This document shows positions 7,982 to 56,400 of a stretch of DNA of 64,000 nt, one piece after another (position 1 is the stretch's first letter; the number at the start of each line of letters is the position of its first letter). The translations under genes and the position numbers were made by a program. Origin of the DNA: Acinetobacter phage At2; the sequence record PQ656108.1, one strand, 5' to 3'. The notes under the pieces are model-generated. The model saw only the letters and a program-made list of their open reading frames with translations, had not been told where the DNA came from and searched no databases.

Positions 7982-7982
7982 T

Positions 7983-11002: not shown

Positions 11003-11077
11003 ACGCCATTAGCTCAGTTGGATAGTAGCAATCTCCTCCTAAGAGATAGGTCACAGGTTCGAGTCCTGTATGGCGTA
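11003..11077 (+). tRNA. tRNA-Arg (anticodon CCT; CCU in RNA)
   Basis: Cloverleaf read by eye: 7-bp acceptor ACGCCAT/ATGGCGT; anticodon stem ATCTC/GAGAT with loop CTCCTAA; T-arm ACAGG-TTCGAGT-CCTGT; discriminator A and encoded CCA. Confidence 0.75.
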
Positions 11078-11094
11078 CCACATTTGAGGTCACT

Positions 11095-14276: not shown

Positions 14277-14535
14277 TTGGTGTATTGTGAGTAAATTCCA
14301 CATTAGGGCTGCAACAGCCTATAAAGTAATTAATGAATTAGGTTTTAGACCTGACAGGTTTACTTTACCACCTACACCAGAAAGTAATTCTCTTTATGGT
14401 GTAAATTTTAAGTTACGTACTGTGTTTTATATGACTCGGTCAGATAAACCAAGACGCAATCTTTCATTTGAAGAGATACGTGAGTTATCAATATTACCTA
14501 TTGAAGCTCATGATGTTTGGATTGAAAATCTTTGA
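14236..14535 (+). CDS. C-terminal-motif family protein (start uncertain)
   Basis: C-terminus SFEEIRELSILPIEAHDVWIENL. Confidence 0.4.
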   Translation: MFLKSSAHWVPLSNWCIVSKFHIRAATAYKVINELGFRPDRFTLPPTPESNSLYGVNFKLRTVFYMTRSDKPRRNLSFEEIRELSILPIEAHDVWIENL

Positions 14536-14556
14536 ACCCTTCGGGTTCTTTTGCGG
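14534..14556 (+). terminator. rho-independent terminator
   Basis: GAACCC-ttcg-GGTTC followed by TTTTG. Confidence 0.6.
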
Positions 14557-14585
14557 TTTGTCTCTTTGGAGACAGACCCACTATG

Positions 14586-14655
14586 GTGTGTGTAGCACGG
14601 TCTGGTAGTGCATCAGTCATGAAGAAGGTCGTAGGTTCGAATCCTACCACACATC
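14586..14655 (+). ncRNA. degenerate tRNA-like element (possible tRNA pseudogene)
   Basis: Acceptor GTGTGTG/CACACAT, D-arm GCAC-GGTCTGGTA-GTGC and perfect T-arm GTAGG-TTCGAAT-CCTAC. Only 18 nt lie between the D- and T-arms, so no canonical 17-nt anticodon arm plus variable loop fits. Confidence 0.35.
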
Positions 14656-14662
14656 CGCGATG

Positions 14663-14737
14663 GTCGAGGTAGCTCAGTAGGTAGAGCAGTGGACGATAAT
14701 CCAAAGGTCGCAGGTTCGATTCCTAGCCCTGACCCCA
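14663..14737 (+). ncRNA. tRNA-like element with non-canonical anticodon loop and mismatched T-stem (possible tRNA pseudogene or atypical tRNA)
   Basis: Acceptor GTCGAGG/CCCTGAC (one A.C mismatch) plus encoded CCA; canonical D-arm GCTC-AGTAGGTA-GAGC; anticodon region forms only a 4-bp stem with a 6-nt loop CGATAA; T-stem has two mismatches. Confidence 0.35.
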
Positions 14738-15480
14738 AACATTATTGGGCATGAAGAAACATCTTACTTACAGGTTCATCAGCAGCCTGTTACGGGTACT
14801 ATGTAGTCCCGTCTTGTCCACCAAATATTAAAGAATTAAACCAAGGCCAATAACACGGCTCCCTTACTCTGCAGGTTAGGGATAACAAGTTGAGGTATGG
14901 TAAGTGATTACGTATAGCTTCCCCTTGGTTTGATGGGCAGTGAGCTTAAAGCCACTGTCTCCTATGGCGAGACCCAACAATATTATGGTTGGTGAGCTTC
15001 TACCACCTATGGTCTAAATAGGTCAATAAGACTAACAGTGCAATGCTAGTGATTACGGAGTAGATCTTCCGAAAGCTAGTAACACTGTTATTGCTCTTAT
15101 TGGGTTGCAAACATGACAACTCAGAACATATCAGTGGTGAGGTTAAATCTCCTGTGACCCATGTAAATATGACTGCATAGAGGCTTTAATACTGGTTTAG
15201 CCTGGAAGGAAGAGGGTAGCTCCCGACTTACCTATAACCATACTAGAGATTCGTCATCTCTGGGTGTTTGCAACGCCAATAAGAGTACCTCTGCCCCGAC
15301 TTGTGGCATTAGCTTCCTGCTGTATGACAGGTGACCTCCAAAGCTAGTATCTTCCTTTAGTGTTTACCTCATAGGCACTAAATAGAGACGTAACGAGTAA
15401 GCCAAGGGCAATCACCCTGAATGCCATGTTTTCCCTATGGTGGCGATCAAGGGAACCAAATTAACCTTTAACCTCTTTTA
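14738..15480 (+). ncRNA. candidate large structured non-coding RNA (about 750 nt, ORF-free)
   Basis: No ORF of 60 aa or more on either strand; lies between tRNA-like elements and a strong terminator; long-range complementary segments (GTTGCAAACA near 15105 and TGTTTGCAAC near 15265). Confidence 0.35.
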
Positions 15481-15517
15481 CCCTACATCTTCCCCAAGGA
15501 TGTAGGGTATTTTTTTA
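15481..15517 (+). terminator. rho-independent terminator
   Basis: CCCTACATC-ttccccaag-GATGTAGGG followed by TATTTTTTT. Confidence 0.7.
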
Positions 15518-15533
15518 ACCCAAGGAACAAAAC

Positions 15534-26204: not shown

Positions 26205-26208
26205 AATA

Positions 26209-26233
26209 GGCTCCCTGCTGGGAGCCTTTTTTT
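26209..26233. terminator. bidirectional rho-independent terminator
   Basis: GGCTCCC-tgct-GGGAGCC with a T-run on the plus strand and an A-run upstream, so it also terminates the minus strand. Confidence 0.65.
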
Positions 26234-26244
26234 GGTGTGTAGTC

Positions 26245-26436
26245 TTAAGGGACTACGGGAGATGTATTAGCTGTAAGCACTACACCTTCACCATCTTTCT
26301 TGTCCTCAGCTACACGAGCCATACCACCATTAAATAGTGGGATAACATCAATCTTGTCTGCCTTCATTTTATCGAAGATAGTTTCAACATTGACCGTAAC
26401 TGCTGTGGTTAAATTACCTTCTGAATCATACGGCAT
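26245..26436 (-). CDS. small protein (63 aa) encoded antisense to the surrounding genes
   Basis: Good RBS AAGGA 8 nt upstream of the minus-strand ATG; terminator immediately downstream. Confidence 0.4.
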   Translation of the reverse strand: MPYDSEGNLTTAVTVNVETIFDKMKADKIDVIPLFNGGMARVAEDKKDGEGVVLTANTSPVVP

Positions 26437-27009: not shown

Positions 27010-27315
27010 ATGTACCATGTAGACCCAGATGCAATGTCTTTCATGGTAGCTGTATTAATGTCATGTGTAACGGCATTCGTATCTATCGTAAAGAAAGTTA
27101 TGCGTAAGCGTAAACCACTATCCAAATTGTGGTTATCAAATGAGGTAGCAATGTGTTTACTTGCTTTCTTGTTTGCGTGGGAGATGTACCCACACTTTAA
27201 ACCTGTTTTACCTACATTCATAACTCAAGGTATATTCGTTGCAATATGCGTGCACATGAGTAGTAGATTAATCCAGATCCTTGAAGAAAGAACTATAAGT
27301 TCTTTGTCCAAGTAA
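27010..27315 (+). CDS. membrane protein (101 aa, three hydrophobic segments)
   Basis: Hydrophobic helices. Confidence 0.45.
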   Translation: MYHVDPDAMSFMVAVLMSCVTAFVSIVKKVMRKRKPLSKLWLSNEVAMCLLAFLFAWEMYPHFKPVLPTFITQGIFVAICVHMSSRLIQILEERTISSLSK

Positions 27316-27316
27316 C

Positions 27317-27338
27317 AAACCCCGTAAGGGGTTTTTTA
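27317..27338 (+). terminator. rho-independent terminator
   Basis: AACCCC-gtaa-GGGGTT followed by TTTT. Confidence 0.65.
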
Positions 27339-30012: not shown

Positions 30013-30293
30013 TGAAAGTCTCTGTTGGTGATCTTGTAAAGGTATCTGAAAAAGATGCGTATGTCCCTGATGATCCTTGGACTCACCCTGTACAACTAGG
30101 TATGTTAATAACTAGAATGTTATGGGAAGAAGCCAACGGAGATACTGACTTTATAGGTACGGTTGTTAAAATCAAAACCTCTAAGTGGTTGGGACTAGTT
30201 AAACTAAAACAACCTATCTATATTGTTAAGCTACGTATGCGTTGCCCTTATGACAATATAATCTACACCACAAAATTAAGCCCTCATTCGTGA
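30012..30293 (+). CDS. hypothetical protein (93 aa)
   Basis: ORF ending inside a terminator hairpin. Confidence 0.4.
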   Translation: MKVSVGDLVKVSEKDAYVPDDPWTHPVQLGMLITRMLWEEANGDTDFIGTVVKIKTSKWLGLVKLKQPIYIVKLRMRCPYDNIIYTTKLSPHS

Positions 30294-30309
30294 GGGCTTT
30301 TTTTTTTTA
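30279..30309. terminator. bidirectional terminator between convergent genes
   Basis: AGCCCTCA-ttcg-TGAGGGCT followed by T10; lies between the plus gene ending at 30293 and the minus gene ending at 30307. Confidence 0.7.
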
Positions 30310-30888
30310 TTTAACTGAGATGTCTATACATCTGCCTGATGGAATATCAATCTTGGTTTCAAGATCTACTTCATACTTACCTTGATTAAATATCACGGGA
30401 TGAGTAGTAAGAGTTAAACCAGTAGCATCAAATGTGATATTAGCACCACACAGCACATTACCTAATTCATCTTTAGGTAAGCAGTATTTAAAACCATTTA
30501 GTGCAAATCCTAATGGCCCATTAATACGGTAGTTACCTACACCATTCTTAATGAACCCTGGTTTAACAGTACCATCATGGTCTAGGACAGCACCGTTATA
30601 CACGCTAATTGCCTTAGATCCGAACATTAGTTCATTGTTGGTGTTAACCATTAACCCGAGGTTTAAACGTGCCTGTTGCGCTGTAGTAGCTCCTGTACCG
30701 CCTCTTTCAATTGGTAAGGCATCTTTAAGCCTTACCTCTGATGAACCACCAGTTAACCAATAGAATAATAATGAAGCTGTATGCTCAGCTTTAAGTGCGT
30801 GGATACGAAGTTCATCTCCCTTACCATCTCCTGCAGCTAAACCATACTCAAACCTTTCACGTTCATTCTGGGCTAAGTTAGTTGCCAT
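30307..30888 (-). CDS. small tail-fiber-like protein (193 aa)
   Basis: Contains IERGGTGATTAQQARLNLGL, the GGTGATTA-AR-NLGL signature recurring near the N-termini of many phage tail fibers. Confidence 0.5.
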   Translation of the reverse strand: MATNLAQNERERFEYGLAAGDGKGDELRIHALKAEHTASLLFYWLTGGSSEVRLKDALPIERGGTGATTAQQARLNLGLMVNTNNELMFGSKAISVYNGAVLDHDGTVKPGFIKNGVGNYRINGPLGFALNGFKYCLPKDELGNVLCGANITFDATGLTLTTHPVIFNQGKYEVDLETKIDIPSGRCIDISVK

Positions 30889-31165
30889 GTCCGTTCTCCT
30901 TGTTGTACTCAGAGATTAACTCAAGAATGCTTTTATGCTTGTTATCACAAACACCATAGCGATAGACAGTGTCATGGCTCCATCTAAGAATCGTGCTAGC
31001 TTTACCATCAGTCAGCTCCTCCAGTGGTTGGTTTGGTGCCGCTAAGTTCGATGGCACTATTAGTTTGGGCGATGTAACTATTGAGTGACTGCAGCCCACT
31101 AGTATCAAAACACTCATTGCTGTAGCTAGACATAAGCACAATTTTTTCAACTTCTCTATCAACAT
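30878..31165 (-). CDS. o-spanin (outer-membrane lipoprotein, Rz1-like); starts inside the i-spanin gene
   Basis: Signal peptide MLIEKLKK-LCLCLATAMSVLILVG with lipobox Cys; Pro-rich mature part; different frame overlapping and extending past the i-spanin. Track ORF 30878-31228; the real start is probably the internal Met. Confidence 0.55.
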   Translation of the reverse strand: MLIEKLKKLCLCLATAMSVLILVGCSHSIVTSPKLIVPSNLAAPNQPLEELTDGKASTILRWSHDTVYRYGVCDNKHKSILELISEYNKENGHGN

Positions 31166-31403
31166 AGATCTTTTCCTTTTCTTTAGCAGCCTTTGACTGC
31201 TCATATTGGTCACCAATCTTAGTGGCAATATCTTGTTGTTTAATGATTACTTCTACTTGCTTATCTTTGCTAGTCAGCAAATGATTTTGAAGACTACGTA
31301 GTTGCTCACCCCTATAAACAAGCATAACAGTGAGCACTATAGAAATAAGTAAAAGTAATCCACATAAGTAAGGTGACAACTTCTTATATAGGATTACTAA
31401 CAT
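31008..31403 (-). CDS. i-spanin (Rz-like, N-terminal TM plus coiled coil)
   Basis: N-terminal TM LCGLLLLISIVLTVMLV followed by a charged helical periplasmic domain; directly downstream of the endolysin. Confidence 0.55.
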   Translation of the reverse strand: MLVILYKKLSPYLCGLLLLISIVLTVMLVYRGEQLRSLQNHLLTSKDKQVEVIIKQQDIATKIGDQYEQSKAAKEKEKIYVDREVEKIVLMSSYSNECFDTSGLQSLNSYIAQTNSAIELSGTKPTTGGAD

Positions 31404-31405
31404 AA

Positions 31406-31909
31406 TTAAGCCTCGTTAACTGAGATCTTACCTGCAGGTAGTATAGGCAAATCATAACGGTGTTCGTTAGGAACACTACCTTCACTTACCCAACGATATG
31501 CAGTTACACGTTTAGGATCAAAGTCCTGAATGGTTACAGCATTAGACTGGTTTCCACCTAAGACCTTCAACATACCTTTGGCAGTCTTACCTACCACAAA
31601 GCCTACATGTCCACCACCATCACGAGTAAACGTAACTACACAACCATAAGCAGGTTTAGATAATGGAGTACCTGCTTTCTCCCACTCTTTAGCACGGAAG
31701 AAATCTTTAGGTACCTTATGTGATAACCCTGCTTCTTTGAAGACTTGGGCACAGAATGTACCACACCAAGGCTGACCAATAAGCCATTTACCAGACAGTG
31801 TTTTAGCCCACGCATCAATAGTAGGGTGTTTATTTGTAGCGTTAATCTCAGTTAAACCAAGATAGCTACGAGCAATTTCAATATGTTTCAATTCAGGTTT
31901 AGCACTCAT
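31406..31909 (-). CDS. endolysin, CHAP/NlpC-P60-like peptidoglycan hydrolase
   Basis: Cys motif PWCGTFCAQV and His motif GGGHVGFVVG typical of phage CHAP-like lysins; sits at the head of the spanin pair. Confidence 0.65.
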   Translation of the reverse strand: MSAKPELKHIEIARSYLGLTEINATNKHPTIDAWAKTLSGKWLIGQPWCGTFCAQVFKEAGLSHKVPKDFFRAKEWEKAGTPLSKPAYGCVVTFTRDGGGHVGFVVGKTAKGMLKVLGGNQSNAVTIQDFDPKRVTAYRWVSEGSVPNEHRYDLPILPAGKISVNEA

Positions 31910-31986
31910 GCTAACCTCCTAGTAAGTATGTTTTAGTTGGGGTATTATTACAGACTCTGTTAAATAATCAAACTAGGTATAAAACC

Positions 31987-32196
31987 ATGACTGAAACTGT
32001 ATCTGCTGTAGGCCTTAGTAAAGTAGAAATGAAGTTGTTAAATGACTTCGCAAATATCATCAATGCACGTGAGTATAGTGAGCAAGTTACTATCAAGCGT
32101 CTGCACTTAAACTACGATGAAGCTACTGGATTTAAAATTGACTTACAAGAAGCATCCAACATTGTGCCTATAGAAGAGGTATCTCCTGCTGAATAA
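31987..32196 (+). CDS. small acidic protein (69 aa) on the opposite strand within the minus module
   Basis: ORF divergent from the endolysin, with its own terminator. Confidence 0.4.
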   Translation: MTETVSAVGLSKVEMKLLNDFANIINAREYSEQVTIKRLHLNYDEATGFKIDLQEASNIVPIEEVSPAE

Positions 32197-32210
32197 GCCC
32201 TAAAATAGAT

Positions 32211-32237
32211 AAAGCCCCAATTAAGGGGCTTTATTTT
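32211..32237. terminator. bidirectional terminator
   Basis: AAAGCCCC-aattaa-GGGGCTTT followed by ATTTTTG; read from the other strand it also terminates the minus gene 32248-32505. Confidence 0.65.
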
Positions 32238-32247
32238 TGTCTACTGA

Positions 32248-32505
32248 TTATTCAGCAGCTTTATGAAGTAAGGCGTGTAGATTTTCTACATACTTGCCAA
32301 TCATAGCATCAATAGACTTTAAGCAAACTTTACTATCTTCATAGTGTTCACCTGCTTTTGATTTAAGGTGATGATCAATAGCTACAGCTAACTCTGCAGA
32401 CTGTGCACCAATAAAATCAGTATTGAGGTGAGTAGCACCATGACGTAATGAATGCTCTACCATAGGCTTTGCAACTTCTGTTGCGATTAATGCAAGTGTG
32501 GACAT
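32248..32505 (-). CDS. hypothetical protein (85 aa)
   Basis: ORF. Confidence 0.4.
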   Translation of the reverse strand: MSTLALIATEVAKPMVEHSLRHGATHLNTDFIGAQSAELAVAIDHHLKSKAGEHYEDSKVCLKSIDAMIGKYVENLHALLHKAAE

Positions 32506-32522
32506 AATAAATTCCTTAGCTA

Positions 32523-32545
32523 ATAAGTAAAATAAAACCCCTATG
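32523..32545 (-). terminator. hairpin terminator (minus strand)
   Basis: ACCCC-tatgaa-GGGGT; on the minus strand it is followed by TTTATT just after the stop of 32541-32828. Confidence 0.45.
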
Positions 32546-32828
32546 AAGGGGTCTTACCTTTGTCAGTCATGGACTGTACGTATCGAGCAAACTTAGTCAA
32601 ACCATTAGATAAAGCTTCTGCATCCTCTGGCCTCTCTTTAAGAAAAGAGCTAAACCATTCATCTAGGGTAAGGCTAGGTTTCTCTTTACCTATAGCCATA
32701 GAATACGCTGCTTCAAAATTACCAGTAGTCATTGCATACTGATAAGCCTCTTGGTTTGACATAACAACTTTAATCTTAGCAATGTTGTCATCACTGTAAC
32801 CTTGTTGTTTTAAAATTTGCTCTAACAT
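32541..32828 (-). CDS. hypothetical protein (95 aa)
   Basis: ORF. Confidence 0.4.
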   Translation of the reverse strand: MLEQILKQQGYSDDNIAKIKVVMSNQEAYQYAMTTGNFEAAYSMAIGKEKPSLTLDEWFSSFLKERPEDAEALSNGLTKFARYVQSMTDKGKTPS

Positions 32829-32839
32829 ACTCCAGTACC

Positions 32840-33703
32840 TTACGCTCTTACGTTAGTGTTTGTGTTAGTTGGGTTTGCTTGTTGGAAACCGCCAATGTTA
32901 ATAGCTTGGTTAGTTGCTTGGATATTCTGCAATGCTGCAGCCAAACCGTTAGTCAAGTTATTTAGTACCTGAGCCTGAGCTTGGAACTGTAATTGGTTTT
33001 GGTTTTGTTGGTTTGTCATGTTGATTTCAATTCCGTGACGGTCTTCACTCCTGCGAGCTTCTGCACGTAATTCATTGATTTCATCTTGACGCTCACCTAA
33101 CAAACGCTGCATGTTAGCGTTTTCATACGATGTGATTAAAGCACGAGTCTTTTCACCATCATTCTGAATAACTTGAGCTAACTCAAACTTACCGTTAAGA
33201 ATTGCTGTACCTAATTGATTACCTACTGCAAGAGTAGTTTCACGGTTAGCACTTGCTGCTGCCAAAGCTGTAGCAATAGACTCAGAGATATTTTTATTAA
33301 TACCTGCTTGGCCTTGAATAGCAGTCTGTAAGCCAGTAGCGATGTTTGCATTAATACCTACCGCAGCGTTATTAATACTACCAGTAAGATCTGCAGTTGC
33401 TCCTGCTAGGGCAAGTTGTACTTGGCCTTCTGCTAAAGGAACTGCTGCTTTGATATCACCGAGTCCATTAAGAACTTCGGTATTCATTTGAGTATCAGTT
33501 ACGTTAGCAAGTTGAGCAGATAGGTTAGAAGGAGTTACACAACCTTCAGCTACACCACCACCGCCAAGTAAACCATTACCATTACGTCCTAAGAGTGAAC
33601 CCAACACAAGACCTCCAATAAGTCCACCACCTAAGCCAAGACCCATACCGTCAGAACCTCCACCAGTAGCAACCATAGCAGGCATTGTAGATTGTAAATG
33701 CAT
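32840..33703 (-). CDS. glycine-zipper N-terminal / Gln-Asn-rich coiled-coil protein (287 aa); function unknown, candidate membrane-active lysis or ejection protein
   Basis: N-terminus GGGSDGMGLGLGGGLIGGLVLGSLLG (GxxxG repeats, a single hydrophobic segment); C-terminus QNQNQLQFQAQAQVLNNL is a low-complexity helix. Confidence 0.45.
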   Translation of the reverse strand: MHLQSTMPAMVATGGGSDGMGLGLGGGLIGGLVLGSLLGRNGNGLLGGGGVAEGCVTPSNLSAQLANVTDTQMNTEVLNGLGDIKAAVPLAEGQVQLALAGATADLTGSINNAAVGINANIATGLQTAIQGQAGINKNISESIATALAAASANRETTLAVGNQLGTAILNGKFELAQVIQNDGEKTRALITSYENANMQRLLGERQDEINELRAEARRSEDRHGIEINMTNQQNQNQLQFQAQAQVLNNLTNGLAAALQNIQATNQAINIGGFQQANPTNTNTNVRA

Positions 33704-33786
33704 ATTTAATTCCTTGATTTAATAACTCTTTATCGAGCAGGTGTAGTATATTTCAATGATTTAAATTTAATAGGTGGTTCGATTCC

Positions 33787-33960
33787 ATGTCACAAATCAA
33801 GAAAGCAAAAGAATGTTTTAGATGTCATTATTGCGGTGCTAAAAAAGCTATATGTCCTGTATGTAAAAAACCTTTTTATAAAAGTAGGGAAAACCATGTA
33901 ATATGTAGTACAAGATGTAGGACAAGAAAATATAGAGCAGCTAAAAAGAAAGCCCCTTAG
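33787..33960 (+). CDS. zinc-ribbon micro-protein (57 aa; CFRCHYC ... CPVC ... CSTRC), basic
   Basis: Below the track cutoff; ATG at 33787 with AGGTGG RBS; ends in a hairpin terminator shared with the convergent minus gene. Confidence 0.45.
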   Translation: MSQIKKAKECFRCHYCGAKKAICPVCKKPFYKSRENHVICSTRCRTRKYRAAKKKAP

Positions 33961-33972
33961 CGGGGCTTTGTT
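33951..33972. terminator. bidirectional hairpin terminator
   Basis: AGCCCC-ttag-CGGGGCT between convergent genes. Confidence 0.5.
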
Positions 33973-34807
33973 ACGTGATTAAATGTTTTATACTCCGTAC
34001 ATCAACAATATAAGCTATCTGTGTACCCTGCATTACCCAAGTTTTAATTTCACTAAATCCCCCTCCAAAATTTAATTCATCACCTGTTACTGCCCTAAAA
34101 GTAACTTCAAGATAACCATCCGAACTAATACTAAATATAGCAGCATCGTGTAAAATAATTACTGTACCCGAGCCGTTATACTCCACAAAGTTACCAATAC
34201 GCTTCTGAGAAAATGCAATACCAAAGTCAGTTACATTAGAGGCTTTGACATTACTTTTCCATTTATAAGACCAAGCATCTATAACACCTGCACCATTACC
34301 ATACAACATTTGATTTACTTTATCTTCTGCGGGTAACACGTGAGTAGCTACTACTTTAAGGTTAGGATACATACTACTATAAGTTACATTACCACTAGGA
34401 TCATAACACTCTAAACCTACTCCTGTTGCAGAAGGGTTAGTCACTAAAAGATTAAAGGGGGTAAATATGACCCCAGTAAGTTTTTTATTAAATGTCTCCC
34501 CATACATAGCCGTAAAACCAACAGAGTAATTATTATTACCTTGGTAAGTATGGCTAGAAATTACAGGACATAACCCTACTGGATTAGTATCTCCCCTTGG
34601 AACAGTTACGATTAAGTGTGCTGCATTTGCTGTATACGGTGTAGCATTCACCGTGTTAACTGGCTTACTAACTAACTTACTATACGTATACTGTGGGTAG
34701 TCAGTATCAAACTGTAATACACCTGTTTCGGAGTAGGCCTCCATACCGTATGCCATTAATAATATCCCCATGATATCTCTGCAGCAGCATAAGGAAAAGT
34801 ACCCCAT
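33971..34807 (-). CDS. hypothetical beta-rich protein, possible tail or receptor-binding accessory (start uncertain)
   Basis: 278-aa ORF downstream of the tail fiber; Ser/Thr/Asn/Tyr-rich; overlaps the previous gene in another frame. Confidence 0.45.
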   Translation of the reverse strand: MGYFSLCCCRDIMGILLMAYGMEAYSETGVLQFDTDYPQYTYSKLVSKPVNTVNATPYTANAAHLIVTVPRGDTNPVGLCPVISSHTYQGNNNYSVGFTAMYGETFNKKLTGVIFTPFNLLVTNPSATGVGLECYDPSGNVTYSSMYPNLKVVATHVLPAEDKVNQMLYGNGAGVIDAWSYKWKSNVKASNVTDFGIAFSQKRIGNFVEYNGSGTVIILHDAAIFSISSDGYLEVTFRAVTGDELNFGGGFSEIKTWVMQGTQIAYIVDVRSIKHLIT

Positions 34808-35058
34808 GAAATAGAGTACCTCCTATACTGCCAAGTTAATTGTGAGTTGGATATTGTAGCGTAAGGCAAGTTATCATATACCCCTGCATTTAATCCAACC
34901 ATAAAAAATATAGGTACCCTATCAGCAGGGATATTAATATTTAATGTTCCATCAGTGCCTGCTGTAGTTGTAACCTTGCCCATAATTCTAGGGAACCTAT
35001 CATTAGTATCATTAATAAGTACCCCATTTGCGTCATAAACTTGTAAACCTTGTGGCAT
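34756..35058 (-). CDS. hypothetical protein (100 aa) downstream of the tail fiber
   Basis: ORF 10 nt after the fiber stop. Confidence 0.4.
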   Translation of the reverse strand: MPQGLQVYDANGVLINDTNDRFPRIMGKVTTTAGTDGTLNINIPADRVPIFFMVGLNAGVYDNLPYATISNSQLTWQYRRYSISWGTFPYAAAEISWGYY

Positions 35059-35068
35059 TAGTAACCCC

Positions 35069-38000
35069 TTACCATAATCCTAACCGAACACGTACACGGT
35101 TATTATCATCATAAACTGTAATCAAACTACCTTGCATTACCATACGTGCCTTTAAAGGTTGAGCAGGATCTTTGTATGTTATTAGTGTACCTAAATTAGC
35201 ACTAATAGCACTTAGTTCAGTTACATTCATCTTATCTGCTGTGATAGTTCCTGCTTGAATCCTAGCTGCTGCAATGTATCCTGCATTAATTTTACTAGCA
35301 TCTAAGTTAGCAATCTTAGCGTTATCTACTGCAAGGTTTGCAATCTTAGCATTAGTAATAGCAGCATTGGCAATATGTGCTGTACCAATAGTAGCATTAG
35401 CAATCAGTGCAACATCAATCCATGTACCTGCAGGATAAGTCACACCTCCGATAGTTTGGCTAGAAGTAAGAATCATAAATGGCTTCTTACCATTAGCAGG
35501 TTTACCTACATAGAAGTAATCCGCATTAATACCAATAGCAGAGCTAGTACCAGTATTGATTAAACCAATACCTGAAACCAACCCATTCACATCAAGCTTG
35601 ATAGAGTATTCAGCTTGAATACCATTAATAGACTGACCGTGAATAGCAATGGTAGATGTATGACCATCTACAGTAGTCTGTAACTGAGTTAAGCTATTTG
35701 ATGTAGCAGTAACCTTACCATCAATGTTAGTTACTTGAGTCTGTAAAGTACTAATAGCATTAGCTGAATCTTCTGGTGCAGGTTCCCAACCAACAGGTAT
35801 TGATGACACTGTCATCGTTACGTTGGAGATAGTGAAAGCTCCTCCCGATGTTTGGGTATGGAAAGGGAAAGTTGAAGGAAACTCAGATGCACCGTTAATC
35901 CAAGTTGCAGGTAAAGTGAATTGGTTTTTAATTCTATACTTACCTACTGGTTGGGATGCAGCGTTATTTAACCATACACCACAGTAATGTGTTGCACCTG
36001 CTATGGTGAAACTTGACTCAAACCCAATCCTATTCCTTGAGCCTACACCGACAGGAGAAGTAATATCAATATCAAATGCCATTGAGATTACAGATCCTGG
36101 GAACAGTAACTTAGACATTGCAGCAGTTAATACAGCCTTAGTACCTCCTGTAGCACTATCTAATAAGTAGTTACGTGTATTAATACCCTCAGCTAGTTTA
36201 GCTTCAACACGTGTAGATGCTTCACTTGCTGCAGTAGCTTTACCATCAATTAAACTTACGTTTGTATTTAAAGTATTAATTGCAGAAGTGTGACCTTCTA
36301 CAGTTGGTTTCATCTCATAAGAGCCAGGGAACCAATCATTACCTAGAATAGTTGGGCCTTTAACCAACACTGCCCAATAGACAGTAGCAACTGTACCCTT
36401 ATCCGCAGTAGGTTTATTAATACAGTAGAAGTTAATAACAGGGTCATTCGCACTATTAGCTTTAGTGAATGTAACCTTACGAACAGTTTTAGCTTGGTTA
36501 GTAATACTATCAACTGATTGTTGACCCCCACCAATATAAACAGACAGATTAGAGTTAGTATCTCCAGTACCACGTTGATGTTCACCACACCATAGCAACG
36601 TATATTGCTGTCCTACGACACAAGCCTTATCCAATGCATAAGCTACATGGGGATAAGAAACACCATTGTATGTACCTACCACATTAGAATTAATTGCTAA
36701 GTTGTTTGTAGCATCTGCAGCATTATTCAGAGTAGTTGTTACACCAGTAATTGCACCAGTGTTAGCAGTGATCTGATTACCCTGAGATGTGATTGTACTC
36801 TGCATACTATTGATAGCATTAGTGTTGGCAGTAGTATTAGTCTCTACGTTAGTAACCCTACCAGTTAGGTTAGTTAGATCACTCGTGTTAGAAGTTATCT
36901 TCCCATCCATAGTAGTAATCTGAGCCTGCATACTAGCAACCGCAGTAGCATTAGCTGAAATATTATTAGTTAACTCTTTATTACTTGGTTTCCAAGCAGA
37001 AGCTTTATTACCAACTTCAAATTGAATATCAGATATGCATACATCGTAAGCTGTACTAAACTTACCGCCTATATGCAAGTTAAAACCAGACTTAGTATTA
37101 ACTAAGCTTGATGATCTAAAAGTTAGTGAATACCTCTTAGGTGACATAGTTATTTGAGATGTAGTCATATTAATCTGAGGGTCATTATTACCACCACCAG
37201 TCTGATGTACCAACATCTGTATAAATTGTGCACTAGAAGAGTTTGTATAAGCTAAAAATGAAACAGTATATTCAGTATCAGGGATGAAGGGTACTAAACC
37301 AGTTTGAGAGATACCTTTAAATAACGAAGTATCGGGTGCTATCAGTCTTGCATAACGTTTGCCAGATAGTACCTCAAAGTTACGTGCTGCATTACCCCAA
37401 ACATTCCAATTTGACCAATCAGGTGTAGCAGCAAAATTACCATTAACTAATAAGTTATCACCACCTACAGCCATATTATCAAAGCTAGCTTTTAATGCTG
37501 TTTGAGCTTGGGTGTTAGCTGTAATCAAACCACCTTGATTAGTAACTTCATTCTGTAAGTTTTGTACAGACTGTGTAGATGCCTTAGTAGTAAGGTCATT
37601 CTTTACAACAACCATATCTGCCTTAAGCGTAGTGGTATCAGAAGTAAGCGTAGTAATCTTACCGTCTTGCTCAGTATTCTTAATTTGTAGTTGGTTTACT
37701 GCAGTAGTATTCGTAGTGATGTTGCCTTCTGCAGCAGTCATACGAGTCTTTAAACCAGTGATATCAGCAGTGTTAGTTGTGGTCTTACCATCAATAGTAT
37801 TAACCTTAGTCTCTAAAGTATTGAAGGCAGTAGTATCTACCTTACCACCTAGAGAAGCTTCTACTGTAGATACACGTCCTGCAGTTACCTCATTGGCAGC
37901 AGCAGCAGCTTCTGCCTTCTGAGTAGCACTAGCAGCATTAGTCATAGCTTGTGATGCATCTGCTTGAGCTACAGTAACTCGGGCATCAATAGCAGACAGT

Positions 38001-39115
38001 TGTGCAGCGTTAGCTTCAACCTTACCAGTAGTAACTGTAAGCTCTTCACGGATATTAGCTAAGCTTGTATCGTTAGACAGCTTAAGGTTGTTGATCATCT
38101 CAATAGATGCATTATCACCTTCGATACGCTCAAGAGTCTCTTGAGTTAAACCATCATTAAGTAACTCTACTTGAGCCACACGTGTAGCAGTCTCTTTAGA
38201 TATTTCAAAAACACGAGCATCAGTCTCAGCAACAACAGTTGATGCAATCTCATCTGTCTTACGTACAACCTCAGCAGACAATGCTTGAGATAAGTTAATC
38301 ATCTCAATAGCGGTATCTTGTGCTTGTTGTGCAAGCTTATTATTGATTGAATTAATATCCGTAAGGTTCTGTGCAAGCTTATCGTCTAGCTCTTTGATAA
38401 TAGGGGCTTGAGACAATGCTTCGATAGCCTTATCAATAATGTCTTGCTCTACAGGTAACTTATTTTGTAAGTCTTGAAGGGCTTGATCTAAATCACCATC
38501 AATAACAGTTTGATAGTCTTTGAACTTACCAAGAATCTCTAAGTCCCATTCACGAGCTTGAGACAAGATAGTCCATGCACCCATATTAATCTCACCATTA
38601 TCCATAGTGATCTGAATAGAGTCTGTAGTGATGTCTTGGAGCATGTCTTCATACTTAGCAATACGTTGACTCATTGAGATGTACTTATCATCTAAATCAG
38701 TCTGAACAATACCAATAGCTGTATAGATCTGATGCTCACGATGGTCAAAGCTAGCAACAGCATTACTGATCTTAATATCAAGATCTATGCCTAACTGCTC
38801 ACGTGCTAATTTCTCAGTAGCTATCTCTAAGTCAGTTTTGATTCTGTAGTCTGATAAGGCTTGTGTTAATGCATTAATGGAATTAACATTTATTAGGTCA
38901 CCTTCAGACCTGTGCAATACCTCAGTAGACAGACGTGACTCAGTACCTTGGTTAGCAGTATTTACATCTGCAACCAACTGGTTATTAGCATTATCCCCTG
39001 TAACCCTTGAGATAGTTTCATTCTGTAAACTTTCCCATAGACGCTGATCCTCAGCTACCAATTCATTCTTAGTAACCGTTAATCGTAAGTCTACTTCTTC
39101 AATTGTAGTAGTCAT
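35069..39115 (-). CDS. tail fiber / tail appendage protein (1348 aa)
   Basis: N-terminal long coiled coil, central Thr/Asn-rich repeats (TNTTAVNQLQ, ITANTQAQTAL and similar), C-terminal IANAAITNAKIANLAVDNAKIANLDASKINAGYIAAARIQAGTITADKM repeats typical of phage fibers. Confidence 0.7.
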   Translation of the reverse strand: MTTTIEEVDLRLTVTKNELVAEDQRLWESLQNETISRVTGDNANNQLVADVNTANQGTESRLSTEVLHRSEGDLINVNSINALTQALSDYRIKTDLEIATEKLAREQLGIDLDIKISNAVASFDHREHQIYTAIGIVQTDLDDKYISMSQRIAKYEDMLQDITTDSIQITMDNGEINMGAWTILSQAREWDLEILGKFKDYQTVIDGDLDQALQDLQNKLPVEQDIIDKAIEALSQAPIIKELDDKLAQNLTDINSINNKLAQQAQDTAIEMINLSQALSAEVVRKTDEIASTVVAETDARVFEISKETATRVAQVELLNDGLTQETLERIEGDNASIEMINNLKLSNDTSLANIREELTVTTGKVEANAAQLSAIDARVTVAQADASQAMTNAASATQKAEAAAAANEVTAGRVSTVEASLGGKVDTTAFNTLETKVNTIDGKTTTNTADITGLKTRMTAAEGNITTNTTAVNQLQIKNTEQDGKITTLTSDTTTLKADMVVVKNDLTTKASTQSVQNLQNEVTNQGGLITANTQAQTALKASFDNMAVGGDNLLVNGNFAATPDWSNWNVWGNAARNFEVLSGKRYARLIAPDTSLFKGISQTGLVPFIPDTEYTVSFLAYTNSSSAQFIQMLVHQTGGGNNDPQINMTTSQITMSPKRYSLTFRSSSLVNTKSGFNLHIGGKFSTAYDVCISDIQFEVGNKASAWKPSNKELTNNISANATAVASMQAQITTMDGKITSNTSDLTNLTGRVTNVETNTTANTNAINSMQSTITSQGNQITANTGAITGVTTTLNNAADATNNLAINSNVVGTYNGVSYPHVAYALDKACVVGQQYTLLWCGEHQRGTGDTNSNLSVYIGGGQQSVDSITNQAKTVRKVTFTKANSANDPVINFYCINKPTADKGTVATVYWAVLVKGPTILGNDWFPGSYEMKPTVEGHTSAINTLNTNVSLIDGKATAASEASTRVEAKLAEGINTRNYLLDSATGGTKAVLTAAMSKLLFPGSVISMAFDIDITSPVGVGSRNRIGFESSFTIAGATHYCGVWLNNAASQPVGKYRIKNQFTLPATWINGASEFPSTFPFHTQTSGGAFTISNVTMTVSSIPVGWEPAPEDSANAISTLQTQVTNIDGKVTATSNSLTQLQTTVDGHTSTIAIHGQSINGIQAEYSIKLDVNGLVSGIGLINTGTSSAIGINADYFYVGKPANGKKPFMILTSSQTIGGVTYPAGTWIDVALIANATIGTAHIANAAITNAKIANLAVDNAKIANLDASKINAGYIAAARIQAGTITADKMNVTELSAISANLGTLITYKDPAQPLKARMVMQGSLITVYDDNNRVRVRLGLW

Positions 39116-39212
39116 ATTTGTGATCCTCTTAACTATGCAAGGATTATAAACACTTATTATCTAAATGGCAGTCCCTGCCCTCTCTCGACTTTTAAAACCA
39201 TAGGAAATTAAT

Positions 39213-50495: not shown

Positions 50496-53400
50496 TTAGA
50501 ACATACCAGTCATCATCTTGATTGGTAATGGCTCATCCAATGCACTTGGTAAGCCTAAAGCTCCACCACGCATAGGGTTACCCATGTTAAACCAAATCAA
50601 AGGATCAATACCAGCTTCTAAGTTAGTGAAGCTATTAATGAACACTGCTTGGGCCATAGCTGTAGCAGGACGCTTCTTAAGCAACTGGAACAATGCTTTC
50701 TGAATACGGATATTATATTTAGTAAACATAACAATACCCATATCGTTTAAGTACTGTAAGCCACGTGCTGTAGGTACGTCATAGTTCACAAAGTTATCAG
50801 AAGCAATCTGAATAGCATCTTCATGACTAAGCTTCTCTTTAGCCTTCTGAGTGTAGTACTTGTACATTACATACTTAGAACTAAAGTCAGAGAACTGGGT
50901 AGCGTTATTCAAGAACTTATACAAAGGAGTATCTGGAGATACAAATGCCCACTTAGCTGCAGTCTTAACAGATTTAGGTACACCACTTGTTAAGTTATCT
51001 ACCTTCTCCTGTAACCTGCTCTTATAAGAATAATGATCTGTAGATGGATCAACATCCTCAACAATAGTAGGCATCATACCTTCTTCAATAAACCCTGCTA
51101 ATGGGTTACGGCTAATAGAGTGCTCAAGAGCTAATGCCTCTTGTTCTAGCTTATTAAAGTCACCTACACCTGCACGTTGGTTCTGACGAATAGCCATTAA
51201 ACGTGCCATAGACTTACGATAAGCTAAACCAGAACGAATAGCTAACATACTGTCCTTAACAATATCAGTAGGACTTACACCATGAGCCATCAATAACATT
51301 GCGTTAGACATTGTATTTGCAAGCATGGTTTTAACGTTACGAATAACAATAATGTCCTTCATAAGGGATACACCTTCCTGCCAAGCCCTCTCAAACCTTA
51401 CCCCTTTCAACTTAGCGTTGTTACCAAATAACTCTACCATCGTACCTGTATAAATCTTCTCAAACATAGACTTAGCTTCATCCATCTTATCGAAGGCTTG
51501 GTTAAGCGAGTACTTACGATATCCAAACATAGTAAGTAAAACATCGTTACGTACTAGCATTCCATCTTTACCCCAAACACTTGTAATGTGTTGACGTGTA
51601 TCTTCTGGCAATAATGCCCAGATCTCACGTAAACCATAATCAGTAGAGTTAGGGCCTACAGTTACATACGCACGAGGATTACTTGCAAAGTTAGCCTTGT
51701 AGTCTTCGTACGCAGCATCTACAACATCATTGTTCTGATGCGGTACAGTAACCTTGTTAAAGTTGGTTGCAGCGTATGCACCTAGTAACTCAGCAAAGTC
51801 ATTATTACGTTCAAGCAACGTATCACGGTTCTTACCAGACATTTCATAACTGAAACCAATCACCTTACCTTGAGTATCGTAGTTAGGTACCATGTAGACA
51901 TTCTTGTCTGACATAGGGTTATAGTTCTTATCTGTAGGAACTGCACGACTTACTTTATTGATAGTTGCAGCTAACTCCTTACCTTCCATAAATACCTGAG
52001 TACCTTTACGGTTAGTAGATACGACCTCAATAGCACCAGATACTAAACGCTGAATGTTAGCTTCTTCTGTCATGAATAAGCGGTTAGTGTTTGTACGTGG
52101 ATCAGTTAAGTCTTTACCCAACACACGCACTTCTTTGTAGTACTGTTGCTTCAAGATCTGTGCTTCTGCATCACTACCTGCAATACGAATATCACGGTTA
52201 GGGTTAGTAATTTCAGGCATATAACCTTTAGTTACTGATACAGAGTTATCAGCAAACAGAGTATCTTTAGCTACCTTAGCAAGCTCTTTATGGAACTTAA
52301 TAGATGTATCAATACCATTGGTTTTGTTCTTTAACTCACGGTTGAATACACGAATTAATAAATTCTTAGTAGCGTTGTCTGTGTAGTTAATTGCATACAA
52401 TGAAGCTAACTTATCTGCTAATGCAATACGTGGATCATTCTCAGGCACCAATTCATTATTGAAACCAGAAACAACAAGACGAGCATTCTTAGCTAACCCA
52501 GGGGAAGCCTTACCTGTGATCATATATTTAGCCAACTGCTTAGCACGGTTAGCAATTACTTGATCATTTAATACAGATTCAATAGAGGCAATCTCTTTAT
52601 TATTGAATGACTTGTCAGCATACAACTTAGCAATCTCTTTAGTAGAGTATTGATCTGTTAATGCACCTAAGTCAGCACGTAACATAGTAGTGATTGCTGT
52701 CTTGTCATCTTTAGTTAAGTATTGACCATTTTCTTCAAACGTAGACATCACGTTCTTAGAAGTAGTATCACGCAGGTTCTCTTTAGTCTGGTTATTCAAC
52801 TTAGTAATACGAAGCATACGCTCAACTGCATTCTTAGTACCATCATTGTTAGCAGCTTCATTAATGATCTCACCAAATAATCCTAACTTTTGGTTAGGGT
52901 TATCCATAGTAGCCATCTCTTTAACTACATCCAGAGTAGTCCACAAATCACCTTTAGCAGATAAACGTGTTACGTTTGAAGCAAGACGTACAGCAGTAAA
53001 ACGAGACTTAGCTAATGCATCTTTTTCAGCAAGACTTACCAACCTATCACGTACTTTCTGAGATACACCATCAGTATAGTCAGTAAGCTTTTCCATCTGA
53101 GCCTCTAACTTACTTACAGCAAACTCACGGTTCTTAGCATCAATACGAGCAAGCTCTTTAGACAATAACTCTAGCTTAGAGTTTACTGCTTGGCCCTTAC
53201 GAGAGTTAGTCATCAAACCAAACACAAAATCTAACACCTTATTTACAGCTTCAACAATTCGCTCATAGTTAGTGTCTGGTTTAGTATCCACACCCGATAC
53301 AGCAAAGCCTAATAAACTATTTAATTGTTGAGAGCCTAAAGCCATAGCAGTAAAACGAGCTAATGGTTCAGGGTTATCACGACCTAATTTAAATAGGAAG

Positions 53401-56400
53401 TCATACATATCCTGAGCAGCTTGTTTATCATCAATATCTGCAGTAGCCCAGTCACCTTCATGAAAGCTTTCTGGCTTAAGTTTTGCTTTAGCAGAACGAT
53501 ATGCCTTGTCCATCTCTGCATACACTTGAGTCATAGTCTTATCACGCATACCTGCAACTAAAGCAGTATATAAAGATTCAACTGCAAAAGACTCTTGATC
53601 AGTCATACGGAAACCTGCAGTAACAGCAGTCTCAGTAGTCATAGCATTACCTTGGTTGATGTAATCATCCCAAGCTTGTTCAGGAGACCAGTTACCATCT
53701 TTAGTTAAGAAGGTATCATCTAAACCACGATAAATAGTGTCAGATACTGTACGCATTAACTCAGACAACCTAGCTTTAAAAGCAGGATCTAAATTAGAGT
53801 TTAATGCTTCAAACACTTGCTGAGATGAGTAAGTATCTACTGTATCCCTTGCTTGTTGAGGTGCACCAAAGATAGTTGCTGTAGGCGTAGTATTAGCATC
53901 AGTACGTCCTAATAACTCCGTAGTATCAATGATTAGTGCTTCTAGTGCTGTTGCATCTTTAGCTGAATACTTACGTCCTGTGAAGCTCTCAAGCACACCT
54001 AGGATGTTCTCTACGAATGAACGTAAAGCTGTGATGATACGATCTTTACCACGTGCTGCTTTAGGAGCCATAGTACGATCTAAGTAATCAACAAACTCAG
54101 GGTATGAGAAACCAGTAGCAATAAACTCTTCTACGTTCTTTACACCATACTTAATTACATCACTGGCATTAGGATCAGCTTCCACCTGAGATTTGATGTG
54201 TTCATACAAGGCATCAATCTTATCTAGTGATTCCTTCGCCTTAGCGTGCGTTTTAGGATCCTTACGTACTTGGGCAATAGAATCTACCGTGATAGCGTGA
54301 ACAAGCTCATGCACGAGCATCTGTGCACGAATAGGACTATCGCTACGTAATATGTTGATCTGAGGGTTACCATCTTTGCCAGTAGTAAACCAAGCAGGAT
54401 TATTATTATCCATAGCTTCTTTCACACCATTAGCATTCTCAGGAGCATCAAGATCAGAGAAGTAATTCACTTCTAAACCTTCAGGCATACGCTCAGTGAT
54501 AAGATCAAGCATGGCATCATAGAACTGAGAGAACTTACCTTTGTTACCTTCTGAGTTATGGAACTGCTTAAGTTCAGCTTGAAGCATTGGAACTAGGTCT
54601 GAACCTTTCATAGTACCGTCTTGGTCTAAGTAATCTTGAATAGTTGTTGGCTCAGGTTTTGAACTCAACACTTCGTAGATAGCATTAGCTTGTGCCATGT
54701 CCTTCTTGTAGTCTTTACGTAATTTATCTACAGCATCAACAATCTGTTTACGCTTAGCATTAGTCATTACGAAGTGACCACCTTCTGTACCGTATTGGTT
54801 CACGTTTACCCAAGACTTCATATTATCTAATTTAGCAAGATCACGTTCATAAGCACGTTTAACCATTCCAGGTAAGATACCTAACTCTTCTACAGCAGTA
54901 TCAATAGCTTGTTTATTTGCTTTGTAGAATGTCTTATCGTCAATCAACTTTTGTAATGGGTTCATTAAAGCACGTACAAACTCACGGTTAACATGAGTAG
55001 TCATTAAACCATCTACAAAGGCTTCATTCTGGATCTTAGCCATCTCTTTACCTTGACCTACCTGTGAAGCGTTAGCATCATGATAGTTCTGTACTGGCAT
55101 AGCACCTAGAGCACTGTGAGCAATGAAGGCATCAATAGATTGAATGATTAAAGCTAAACCAGATACACCAGGATCTTTAACTACATCACGTTTAGCGTAC
55201 GCACGTACAGAGAATCCCTTACCTTGTTTAGAGTCCCAAGTACCTACAAAGTTAAACTGTTGTTCAGACATCTTAGTACCATCCCATGCAGTATCTAACT
55301 TCATGAGTGGGATAGAAGATTGCTTACTGTTAGTAGAGTTATTACCCATACCTGAAACTACAGAAGGGGTATAACGAGCAATAGACTTAAGTACTTTCTT
55401 TTCTTGCTGTGAAGATAAACCTTCTTGGCGATTACCTTTAGCATCAGTAATAACGTCAGTAGTGTCTTTCATAGCTTCTTCTAAAGCAGCTTTACGAATT
55501 AACTCATATACCTTAAACCCTGCAACTGCTTGTGCAGTCAAAGTATCACGTACCTCTTGGAAGTCTTTCATAGCAGTCTCAAGAGTGTTCTTAATAGCTT
55601 TACCATGTTGAATAGCAGACACATCTAATAAGGCTTTCTCTTGCTCTGCAGTAAGCATGAATTCCATGATATTACCTTGTGGTACCACTCTAGGTACTGA
55701 ACCAAGGAATGAGTTGTGGTAATCAATTACAGCATTAACAGCATCAACTAAGTTCTGAGCAGCAGCCATATCATTAGTTTTACCTGCCTTCTCTAAACCA
55801 GTATAGAAAGCATTAAGTACTTCACGACCATTGGCACGAATAATAGAAGCATTACCAGCACCATAGTTTGAAGTAGTAGTAATTGGCTTAGCACCTTTAC
55901 GTTTACCAAATGCAGGGTAGATAACACCTAGTGCATTAGCAGAAGCCAAGGCTTTAGGCTTGATATTAGGATCAGCTTTATATTCAGCCCACATCTGTTG
56001 CATGACTCCACCAAGCTGTTCATAGATATCTTCTTTACCTTGCTCTTTGTTAGTAGGTACGTTGGTTTTAGCCTTATTGGTAAATACACCACCTGCCTCT
56101 AACATATCAGCATCAGCAGTACCTAAAGCCACGTTAGTAATAACTGGCCCGTTAGTTACACCATCAGATTCAAATGCAATATCAGTAGTGAATGTACGAG
56201 CACCATCACGCTCAGCAATGTAGTGTTGAGCTAATGCTTGTAATGCACGTACAGACATTGGCCCCATACCAAACTCTTTAACTACACGTTCGATGTTAGC
56301 GATATCTTCTTTAGTACTCTTGGTTTCAATAATTGAAGCCATAGATTCAATACCTGCTTGTACGTAGTCACGTTGCAAGTATTCTTGGAACTTAGGTAAG

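Follow-up and report, generated by a model that had tools for sequence, protein, structure and literature searches.

The reverse-strand fiber-plus-lysis island of the N4-like Acinetobacter phage At2 and its nested accessory cassette

Organization of the fiber-plus-lysis island

The stretch of DNA analyzed here, termed the window, comprises 64 kb (64,000 nucleotides) of the N4-like Acinetobacter phage At2 (PQ656108.1), in which an island of ~8.8 kb at 30.3-39.2 kb carries tail fiber and lysis genes on the minus strand. The island is probably a conserved one for adsorption plus lysis in an N4-like Acinetobacter phage of the Schitoviridae, borne on the late strand within forward replication genes, with a smaller cassette nested inside it and with the best holin candidate encoded outside. 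Placement of At2 in the Schitoviridae is based on a 3342-amino-acid (aa) open reading frame (ORF) on the minus strand (50496-60524) that matches the virion RNA polymerase family phrog_2206 (E-value 0, 1742 bits). All later ORFs share its orientation, so that only minus-strand genes are found between 50.5 kb and the end of the window, as had been claimed for the structural genes in an earlier, sequence-only reading of the same DNA. Outside the island the genes up to 30.3 kb are on the plus strand except for small minus-strand ORFs at 14498-14704 and 26245-26436, and the interval 39.2-50.5 kb is entirely plus strand. Within 30307-39115 the coordinates and strands of the ORFs in a mechanical ORF list were identical to those given earlier, and the CHAP-like endolysin, overlapped spanins and two plus-strand micro-genes are located where they had been described. 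The description of a separate minus-strand fiber-plus-lysis island divided into three units by two plus-strand genes and hairpins is accurate. By DNA, nACB1 and XC38, both Acinetobacter phages, are the nearest relatives on deposit. Similarity of the window to any deposited phage record is limited to short stretches with 80-85% DNA identity.

The rightmost unit (unit A) begins with the gene for a 1348-aa tail fiber (35069-39115, minus strand) which matches tail-protein PHROGs (E-value 5e-128) and bears a CBM_4_9 domain in its variable central part. Two fiber-accessory genes lie downstream on the same strand, one for a 100-aa protein (34756-35058; phrog_2427; 69% identity to nACB1_038) and one for a 278-aa protein (33971-34807; phrog_4062; 47% identity to nACB1_039) that is absent from XC38. 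In addition, a 69-nt unit recurs in the fiber gene as four diverged copies spread across 35706-37844 which are 62-71% identical to the reference copy, are 525-885 nt apart, and match a recurring '...TT.GKIT.N...' coiled-coil motif.

The leftmost unit (unit C) encodes the lysis proteins on the minus strand. The 167-aa endolysin (31406-31909) exceeds the cut-offs of both the CHAP profile PF05257 (29.9 bits versus 26) and TIGR02594 (114.3 bits versus 70.55), retains the catalytic pair Cys49 (PWCG) and His101 (GGHVGF), and possesses neither a signal peptide nor a signal-arrest-release (SAR) segment. The 131-aa Rz-like i-spanin (31008-31403; phrog_1152, E-value 4.4e-13) has an N-terminal transmembrane (TM) segment and is 34-42% identical to its counterparts in relatives. 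The o-spanin is encoded in an overlapping frame (30878-31228) for which the most likely start is an internal ATG at 31165 within the i-spanin gene, yielding a 95-aa protein (30878-31165) with the lipobox LVGC. The phrog_1152 match, the TM segment, the lipobox and the overlapping coordinates identify the pair as an overlapped two-component spanin. The o-spanin frame is conserved at 43-47% identity (46-47% for nACB1 and XC38) yet unannotated in the records of nACB1 (L001, 2513-2785), XC38 (L002, 2560-2904) and Presley (L012, 20595-20837), and the tiny ORFs nACB1_043 and XC38 gp41 are annotated in its place. The final gene of the unit specifies a tail-fiber-like protein of 193 aa (30307-30888) with a C-terminal tail-fiber domain (phrog_1836, E-value 7.5e-12). 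Its position is kept in nACB1 (nACB1_044), XC38 (gp42), Presley (Presley_54) and two uncultured N4-like contigs, L005 and L007, with 34-42% identity.

Between these units is unit B, also on the minus strand, which encodes a 287-aa Gly-zipper protein (32840-33703) with an N-terminal hydrophobic segment at approximately residues 20-38, a long predicted helix and a conserved N/T-rich C-terminus, followed by proteins of 95 aa (32541-32828) and 85 aa (32248-32505). Homologs of the latter are present in L005, L007 and contigs L008 and L023. Head-to-head with the 287-aa gene is a plus-strand micro-gene (33787-33960) for a 57-aa basic, Cys-rich protein that is a putative regulator, with six invariant cysteines and an RxRKxRR tail. 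Unit B and this micro-gene together form the nested cassette (32248-33960). The second plus-strand micro-gene (31987-32196) encodes an acidic, clade-specific protein of 69 aa for which a database search gave near-identical sequences only. Orthologs occupy the same slot in the same orientation in nACB1 (nACB1_040), XC38 (gp38), Presley (Presley_57), L005 (a 65-aa gene) and L007 (a 61-aa gene). Proteins identical to the 287-aa and 69-aa ORFs of At2 also were present on a Logan assembly contig.

Both micro-ORFs are short and without a curated family match, and each abuts a hairpin, features that would be expected if neither were a gene and the hairpins alone mattered by insulating the minus-strand units from each other. 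This explanation deserves almost no credence as it already is contradicted by conservation at the protein level: 25-47% identity extends along the whole 69-aa ORF across the six phage sequences, with no frameshifts, and the 57-aa ORF preserves six invariant cysteines and the basic tail across 16 aligned homologs from diverse contigs. Judged by this sequence conservation, the two micro-ORFs are real genes. The 63-aa minus-strand ORF at 26245-26436 mirrors the micro-gene design as it stands alone among plus-strand genes and has a bidirectional hairpin (26208-26227) at its end; it gave no PHROG or Pfam match. In relatives, the holin-family gene or the NUDIX-side block is immediately preceded by an opposite-strand gene of decoration type (Ig-like Presley_47, Phage_head_fibr in L005 and Big_2 in L007).

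A terminator scan returned 16 sites compared with 6.0 ± 2.9 in shuffled sequences. The hairpins at the three unit boundaries are the strongest of the region (-14 to -18 kcal/mol; z-scores of -2.8 to -6.2). Where the plus-strand NUDIX block and the island converge, the hairpin AAGCCCTCA-TTCG-TGAGGGCTT with its T-run (30278-30309; hairpin at 30278-30299) can be read on both strands (plus, -16.1 kcal/mol, z -6.2, with a U11 tail; minus, -14.6 kcal/mol, z -5.2, with a weaker tail). The hairpin ATAAAGCCCC-AATTAA-GGGGCTTTAT (32209-32234), at one flank of the nested cassette, favors the plus strand and looks to be mainly the terminator of the 69-aa gene. The hairpin AAAGCCCC-TTAGC-GGGGCTTT (33949-33969), at the other cassette flank, has a good U-run on the minus strand only and looks mainly like the terminator of the fiber unit. 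Thus, hairpins that had been described as bidirectional terminators are real and stable, but their U-tracts are uneven and bidirectionality is partial. A hairpin with a T-run (...CCCTACATCTTCCCCAAGGATGTAGGGTATTTTTTT) also closes an 829-nt stretch elsewhere in the window (14705-15533) in which a greedy gene call found no ORF of at least 45 aa on either strand; this stretch could hold a non-coding RNA or an origin-type element. A tRNA-Arg gene with anticodon CCT (11003-11080, plus strand) is located in the phage early/middle region.

Each unit is preceded by a divergent intergenic region with a sigma-70-like site that is a consensus match only. The region 5' of the fiber gene (39116-39212) includes CTGCCA-17-TATAAT (39171-39143), the best site of the scanned region. 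The 83-bp region between the 287-aa and 57-aa genes (33704-33786) has TATTAAAT direct repeats and a site at 33793-33764. The region 5' of the lysis unit (31910-31986) contains a consensus match, TTGATT-16-AATAAT with a TG element (31971-31944). Unit A, comprising the genes for the fiber and the 100-aa and 278-aa proteins, would be transcribed from the divergent region at 39.1-39.2 kb to the hairpin at 33949-33969, and unit C, comprising the genes for the CHAP endolysin, the two spanins and the 193-aa protein, from 31.9 kb to the hairpin at 30278-30299. In Pseudomonas phage LUZ7, ONT-cappable-seq established that transcription of all Crick-strand genes is confined to the late stage, including those surrounded by forward genes, that antisense middle transcripts cross these genes, and that bidirectional terminators separate convergent genes (PMC9163698). 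By analogy, host RNA polymerase would transcribe the minus-strand units of At2 late in infection, using weak sigma-70-like promoters, and forward middle-stage transcripts may run antisense across them at an earlier stage. Independent, late regulation of the island is plausible on this comparison. Several points weigh against it: sigma-70-like sites in the whole promoter scan were fewer than in shuffled sequences (21 versus 32), a k-mer search 5' of plus-strand genes for a middle-promoter motif yielded AT-rich words only, and the assigned promoters and transcription timing are carried over from LUZ7 and N4.

Conservation of the island, sites of exchange and location of a candidate holin gene

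The At2 island is not peculiar to this phage. In nACB1, XC38 and Presley the island is located in the same orientation between the NUDIX/phosphoesterase side and the thymidylate synthase/ribonucleotide reductase (RNR) genes, and it is directly beside NUDIX-side genes in the uncultured N4-like contigs L005/L006 and L007, which are partial and were found via the 287-aa protein. Reverse-oriented equivalents exist in LUZ7 and in Pectobacterium phage CB1. The thymidylate synthase gene adjoins the island in nACB1, XC38, Presley and CB1, and an island of the same kind is described in the text of the Possum genome paper (PMC9569702). The common gene order consists of the ~193-aa fiber-like protein, the spanins, the endolysin, the ~70-aa plus-strand gene, the fiber-accessory genes and the giant fiber, with orthology confirmed at the protein level. 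The At2 block therefore has the hallmarks of the Schitoviridae reverse fiber-plus-lysis island which is embedded in forward replication genes beside thymidylate synthase/RNR. The island is an ancestral Schitoviridae feature with an ordinary and already published layout.

The sequence-only reading had interpreted the whole 8.8 kb as a possibly horizontally exchangeable host-range-plus-lysis cassette with a holin-less aspect, and had acknowledged that this mobility would fall if the arrangement proved to be the conserved ancestral state of related phages. That is the arrangement found among the N4-like relatives, and the mobile-cassette interpretation fails for this reason. Certain features do fit exchange of the block: its proteins are more diverged than those of the flanks (33-57% identity for the fiber and a replaced endolysin, compared with 70% for ThyX and 77-80% for RNR), the block as a whole is bounded by terminators, and the island itself is without a holin. 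However, seven related genomes of several genera have the block in an identical position and orientation, and the position was fixed in all relatives examined. When composition was compared with the flanks, there was no GC anomaly over the island, and tetranucleotide distance was raised only over 34.5-39 kb, which corresponds to the repetitive fiber gene; the lysis part bears no foreign signal. The diverged 69-nt units are probably the cause of this local deviation. Neither flanking repeats nor a recombinase ORF were found for the 8.8-kb block. Exchange of the block as a unit is largely refuted by synteny, and this interpretation, together with lysis that dispenses with a holin, is now very improbable. 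The earlier description of the locus is correct, but its two headline interpretations, a mobile cassette and holin-less lysis, are wrong.

Exchange instead occurs below the level of the whole block, in the endolysin slot, in the center of the fiber and in the nested four-gene cassette. The endolysin slot holds the CHAP/TIGR02594 enzyme in At2, a PF11860 muramidase in L005, and an Amidase_3 protein in Presley and L007. A PF11860 muramidase also occupies the slot in nACB1 and XC38 according to the published papers and record annotation (nACB1, PMC10057805). The At2 endolysin has no homolog in nACB1, XC38 or Presley; the spanins beside the slot are orthologous throughout the clade. The presence of three unrelated endolysins in otherwise syntenic Acinetobacter N4-like phages provides a set of natural swaps for endolysin engineering against Acinetobacter. 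Fiber conservation is clear only in the N-terminal part and in the C-terminal 230-280 residues.

A hydropathy scan of all ORFs of at least 35 aa in the 30.3-39.2 kb interval detected no small protein with 2-3 TM segments, and hydrophobic segments were confined to the spanins and the 287-aa protein. The lysis cluster therefore includes no canonical holin, here taken as a small protein with 1-3 TM segments, and in this respect the earlier statement that none lies next to the endolysin stands. Holin-less lysis is disfavored by a conserved holin-family gene that is situated 4 kb away: a plus-strand ORF at 27010-27315, upstream of the island and outside it, specifies a 101-aa membrane protein that matches the phrog_6854 'holin' family (E-value 8.9e-24), has three hydrophobic segments, and is followed by its own hairpin (27319-27336). 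The profile match and the multiple TM segments establish family membership; the hole-forming role is putative. Matches to the phrog_6854 family were found in 123 phage records, nearly all of which are N4-like, and orthologs of the 101-aa protein are encoded in the forward gene block 5' of the island in nACB1, XC38, Presley, LUZ7 and CB1. The nACB1 ortholog is just upstream of the AAA ATPase gene. In the nACB1 paper, the holin (gp51) is named apart from the endolysin and spanin and is outside the island (PMC10057805).

All three endolysin types of the clade are without an N-terminal hydrophobic segment, and therefore a holin is needed. The alternative of a SAR or signal-peptide endolysin was ruled out by hydropathy analysis of all of the clade endolysins; without such a segment the enzyme cannot export itself, which argues further against lysis without a holin. 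The At2 endolysin would be cytoplasmic and released via a holin, for which the best candidate is the 101-aa protein encoded on the opposite strand. By sequence criteria it appears to be the only conserved holin candidate. Two observations count against this assignment. The 'holin' label of phrog_6854 derives from annotation and may have been over-propagated across the Schitoviridae. In addition, the RefSeq entry of CB1 applies the name 'holin' to two proteins, gp51/gp59, of which one, in the forward block, belongs to the phrog_6854 family and the other, flanked by the endolysin and spanin genes, is a canonical holin.

The 287-aa protein itself might be the At2 holin or a lysis-timing factor, with unit B forming part of the lysis system and a single N-terminal TM segment linked to a large soluble domain as in the T4 holin T. 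It is the sole island protein apart from the spanins with a hydrophobic segment, its unit is immediately upstream of the endolysin unit in At2, L005 and L007, its modeled helix of ~31 nm could span the periplasm, and a scan of 185,579 reference genomes revealed no family member, consistent with a lytic-cycle function. However, nACB1, XC38 and Presley are without the protein although their endolysins also are cytoplasmic, the gene adjoins portal, tail fiber or thymidylate synthase genes elsewhere rather than lysis genes, and the Gly-rich segment is only moderately hydrophobic (Kyte-Doolittle value of 1.75) and modeled at low confidence. The protein was rejected as a clade-wide holin in view of the three relatives that do not possess it, and a holin or timing role in At2 is unlikely.

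The nested four-gene cassette

The cassette is absent from nACB1 and Presley. In XC38 the only trace is a match over the N-terminal 33 residues of the 95-aa protein (48% identity, E-value 1.7e-6; L002, 4084-4182). This stretch, which overlaps the start of gp37, looks from its sequence like a cassette remnant. The product name of XC38 gp37, 'flagellar attachment zone protein 1', is probably spurious. By contrast with these genomes, all four cassette genes are present in L007, three (those for the 57-aa, 287-aa and 85-aa proteins) in L005/L006, and all four also in a 45-kb siphophage-like contig, L008, that encodes tail-tube and tape-measure proteins. In L008 an HNH/AP2 homing-endonuclease gene (7919-8419) is inserted between the 275-aa and 99-aa cassette genes. 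Presence or absence among relatives, occurrence on unrelated backbones and terminator-bounded ends are the properties of a moron-like accessory cassette.

The two hairpins that flank the cassette are the sole AAGCCCC-N-GGGGCTT hairpins in the window. In nACB1 and Presley a single such hairpin is located at the empty site, and in L007 two flank the cassette. L005 and an unrelated 41-kb contig, L018, likewise have the hairpin that marks the Cys-rich gene's 3' end. This pattern fits, but does not prove, gain or loss of the cassette by recombination at a terminator. The cassette would accordingly be a moron-like accessory unit that is not ancestral and that was gained or lost at the terminator which follows the 69-aa gene. 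Two considerations weigh on the other side: the short XC38 match is explained as well by an ancestral cassette that was later lost as by insertion, and the hairpin in common might represent a terminator type that is widespread among these phages instead of a recombination scar.

The 287-aa protein belongs to a family with more than 950 homologs. Conserved features include the N-terminal Gly-zipper, the motifs LGDIKA-VPLAE-QVQLALAG and DGEKTRALI, a Q/N-rich stretch and a C-terminal NPTNTNTNVRA motif. Searches of Pfam, PHROGs, NCBIfam and PADLOC with the 287-aa, 95-aa and 85-aa proteins gave nothing above noise, and the 57-aa protein gave sub-threshold zinc-finger matches only. No cassette protein matched the anti-phage defense profiles of PADLOC at E-values up to 0.1. 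Against PDB sequences, the 287-aa family profile retrieved only composition-driven noise (lectin and prion entries) and the Cys-rich profile retrieved only CxxCGKxF zinc-finger motifs. A profile scan of 185,579 reference bacterial and archaeal genomes did not detect the 287-aa family, which therefore is not a common prophage gene. Among cultured phages only PhiPLPE gp38 was matched. From these sequence searches the cassette family appears to behave as a moron of apparently virulent phages.

The genomic neighbors of 287-aa-family genes vary and include portal, tail fiber and thymidylate synthase genes. Among the 62 loci that were examined, a 57-aa homolog is encoded in 24, nearly always on the opposite strand and ending 19-170 nt 5' of the 287-aa-family gene, and a 95-aa-family gene is directly downstream in 16. 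Where the Cys-rich gene is lacking, the head-to-head slot is occupied in some loci by a small basic protein of an unrelated kind and in others by a LuxR/GerE helix-turn-helix protein (Pfam E-value ~1e-18). The basic proteins are 60-70 aa in length with the motif ARLT..QARKARRIG.GN.SEGIR..I, as exemplified by PhiPLPE gp37, and on sequence features look like ribbon-helix-helix-type DNA binders. Members of this basic family occupy the slot in L003, L017, L022, L025, L041, L042, L044, L053 and L068, and have no Pfam match. The occurrence of three unrelated small proteins in one slot, one of which is a true DNA-binding regulator family, argues for a pairing of regulator and effector.

In an AlphaFold2 model of the 287-aa protein, residues 58-268 form one helix (~210 residues, ~31 nm) with predicted local distance difference test values >90 across approximately residues 90-215 and a predicted template modeling score of 0.26. 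The model indicates an oligomeric coiled coil of ~30 nm. A single helix of this length is typical of fibrous coiled coils, and a serious rival explanation of the cassette is that the 287-aa protein is an optional virion fiber or whisker, assembled as a trimeric coiled coil, with the 95-aa protein as its chaperone or adaptor. Consistent with this, the PhiPLPE homolog gp38 is annotated as a putative tail fiber and is encoded among structural genes, the gene follows tail fiber genes in several loci, and these genomes often carry optional decoration genes (e.g., Presley_47 and the head-fiber gene of L005). However, head-to-head pairing with putative DNA-binding proteins of three unrelated families would be unusual for structural genes, PhiPLPE gp38 does not bear the 'confirmed by MS' note of gp34 and gp35, and the N-terminus is a hydrophobic Gly-zipper instead of a known virion-attachment domain. 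The whisker explanation is doubtful, but is the better placed of the two alternatives for this protein.

The preferred reading of the cassette is that a small putative DNA-binding regulator is encoded head-to-head with a membrane-anchored coiled-coil protein of ~30 nm and its small partner. The hydrophobic N-terminus, the periplasm-spanning length of the helix, the putative regulation of its expression and its confinement to the lytic cycle together favor a role in the envelope. We infer that the cell envelope is the most likely site of action, where the cassette would influence lysis timing or exclusion in the course of the lytic cycle. Put more broadly, and tentatively, the genes for the 57-aa Cys-rich, 287-aa and 95-aa proteins may constitute a widespread undescribed phage cassette in which the regulator controls a membrane-anchored, periplasm-spanning effector that acts on the envelope, the regulator slot being filled by a Zn-ribbon, ribbon-helix-helix-like or LuxR-type protein, and which moves between podo-, sipho- and myophages at terminator hairpins. 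Such an effector would operate on the envelope in lytic infection, for example in lysis timing, competitor exclusion or receptor masking on lysing cells. It weighs against the preferred reading that the cassette proteins have no known family, that the structure model is a single helix, and that the envelope role is drawn from architecture alone. The 287-aa family nevertheless offers a concrete and testable piece of phage dark matter as it has no library match or solved structure and is consistently paired with a putative regulator.

Comparison with known systems

Overall, At2 is one more Acinetobacter schitovirus with a standard reverse fiber-plus-lysis island. The ideas of a mobile block and of holin-less lysis are corrected, and the nested cassette is a moderate lead. 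The island has the same place, orientation and gene order as the blocks Presley_54-60, XC38 gp34-42, nACB1_036-044, LUZ7 gp52-59 and CB1 gp57-62, and the block of Possum. The fiber termini, spanins, 193-aa protein and 69-aa plus-strand gene of these Schitoviridae blocks are orthologous to those of At2, and the Presley record places a terminator after the plus-strand micro-gene, at the position of the 32.2-kb hairpin in At2, and another within the fiber unit. The At2 island differs in having a CHAP/TIGR02594 endolysin in place of the PF11860 muramidase or Amidase_3 of relatives, an extra 1.7-kb four-gene cassette, and a shorter fiber (1348 aa compared with 2133-2489 aa in the known blocks). The CB1 island contains a holin, whereas that of At2 does not.

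The lysis genes conform to the Rz/Rz1 type of spanin, in which the i-spanin has an N-terminal TM segment and the lipoprotein gene of the o-spanin begins within the i-spanin gene and ends beyond it, as in At2. The 287-aa protein shares with the T4 holin T, TolA and the i-spanin an N-terminal anchor and a long extended domain, and its helix of ~31 nm could span the periplasm. However, it has no sequence similarity to any of these proteins; the likeness is architectural only and the topology is predicted.

Like phage morons, the cassette is situated between two core units, is bounded by terminators and has its own divergent intergenic region. It also resembles them in being present or absent among close relatives and in occurring in phages of other morphotypes. 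Classical morons are known mostly from temperate phages. Unlike these, the At2 cassette is found in apparently virulent phages, was not detected in reference bacterial genomes, and consists of four genes that include a putative regulator in head-to-head orientation.

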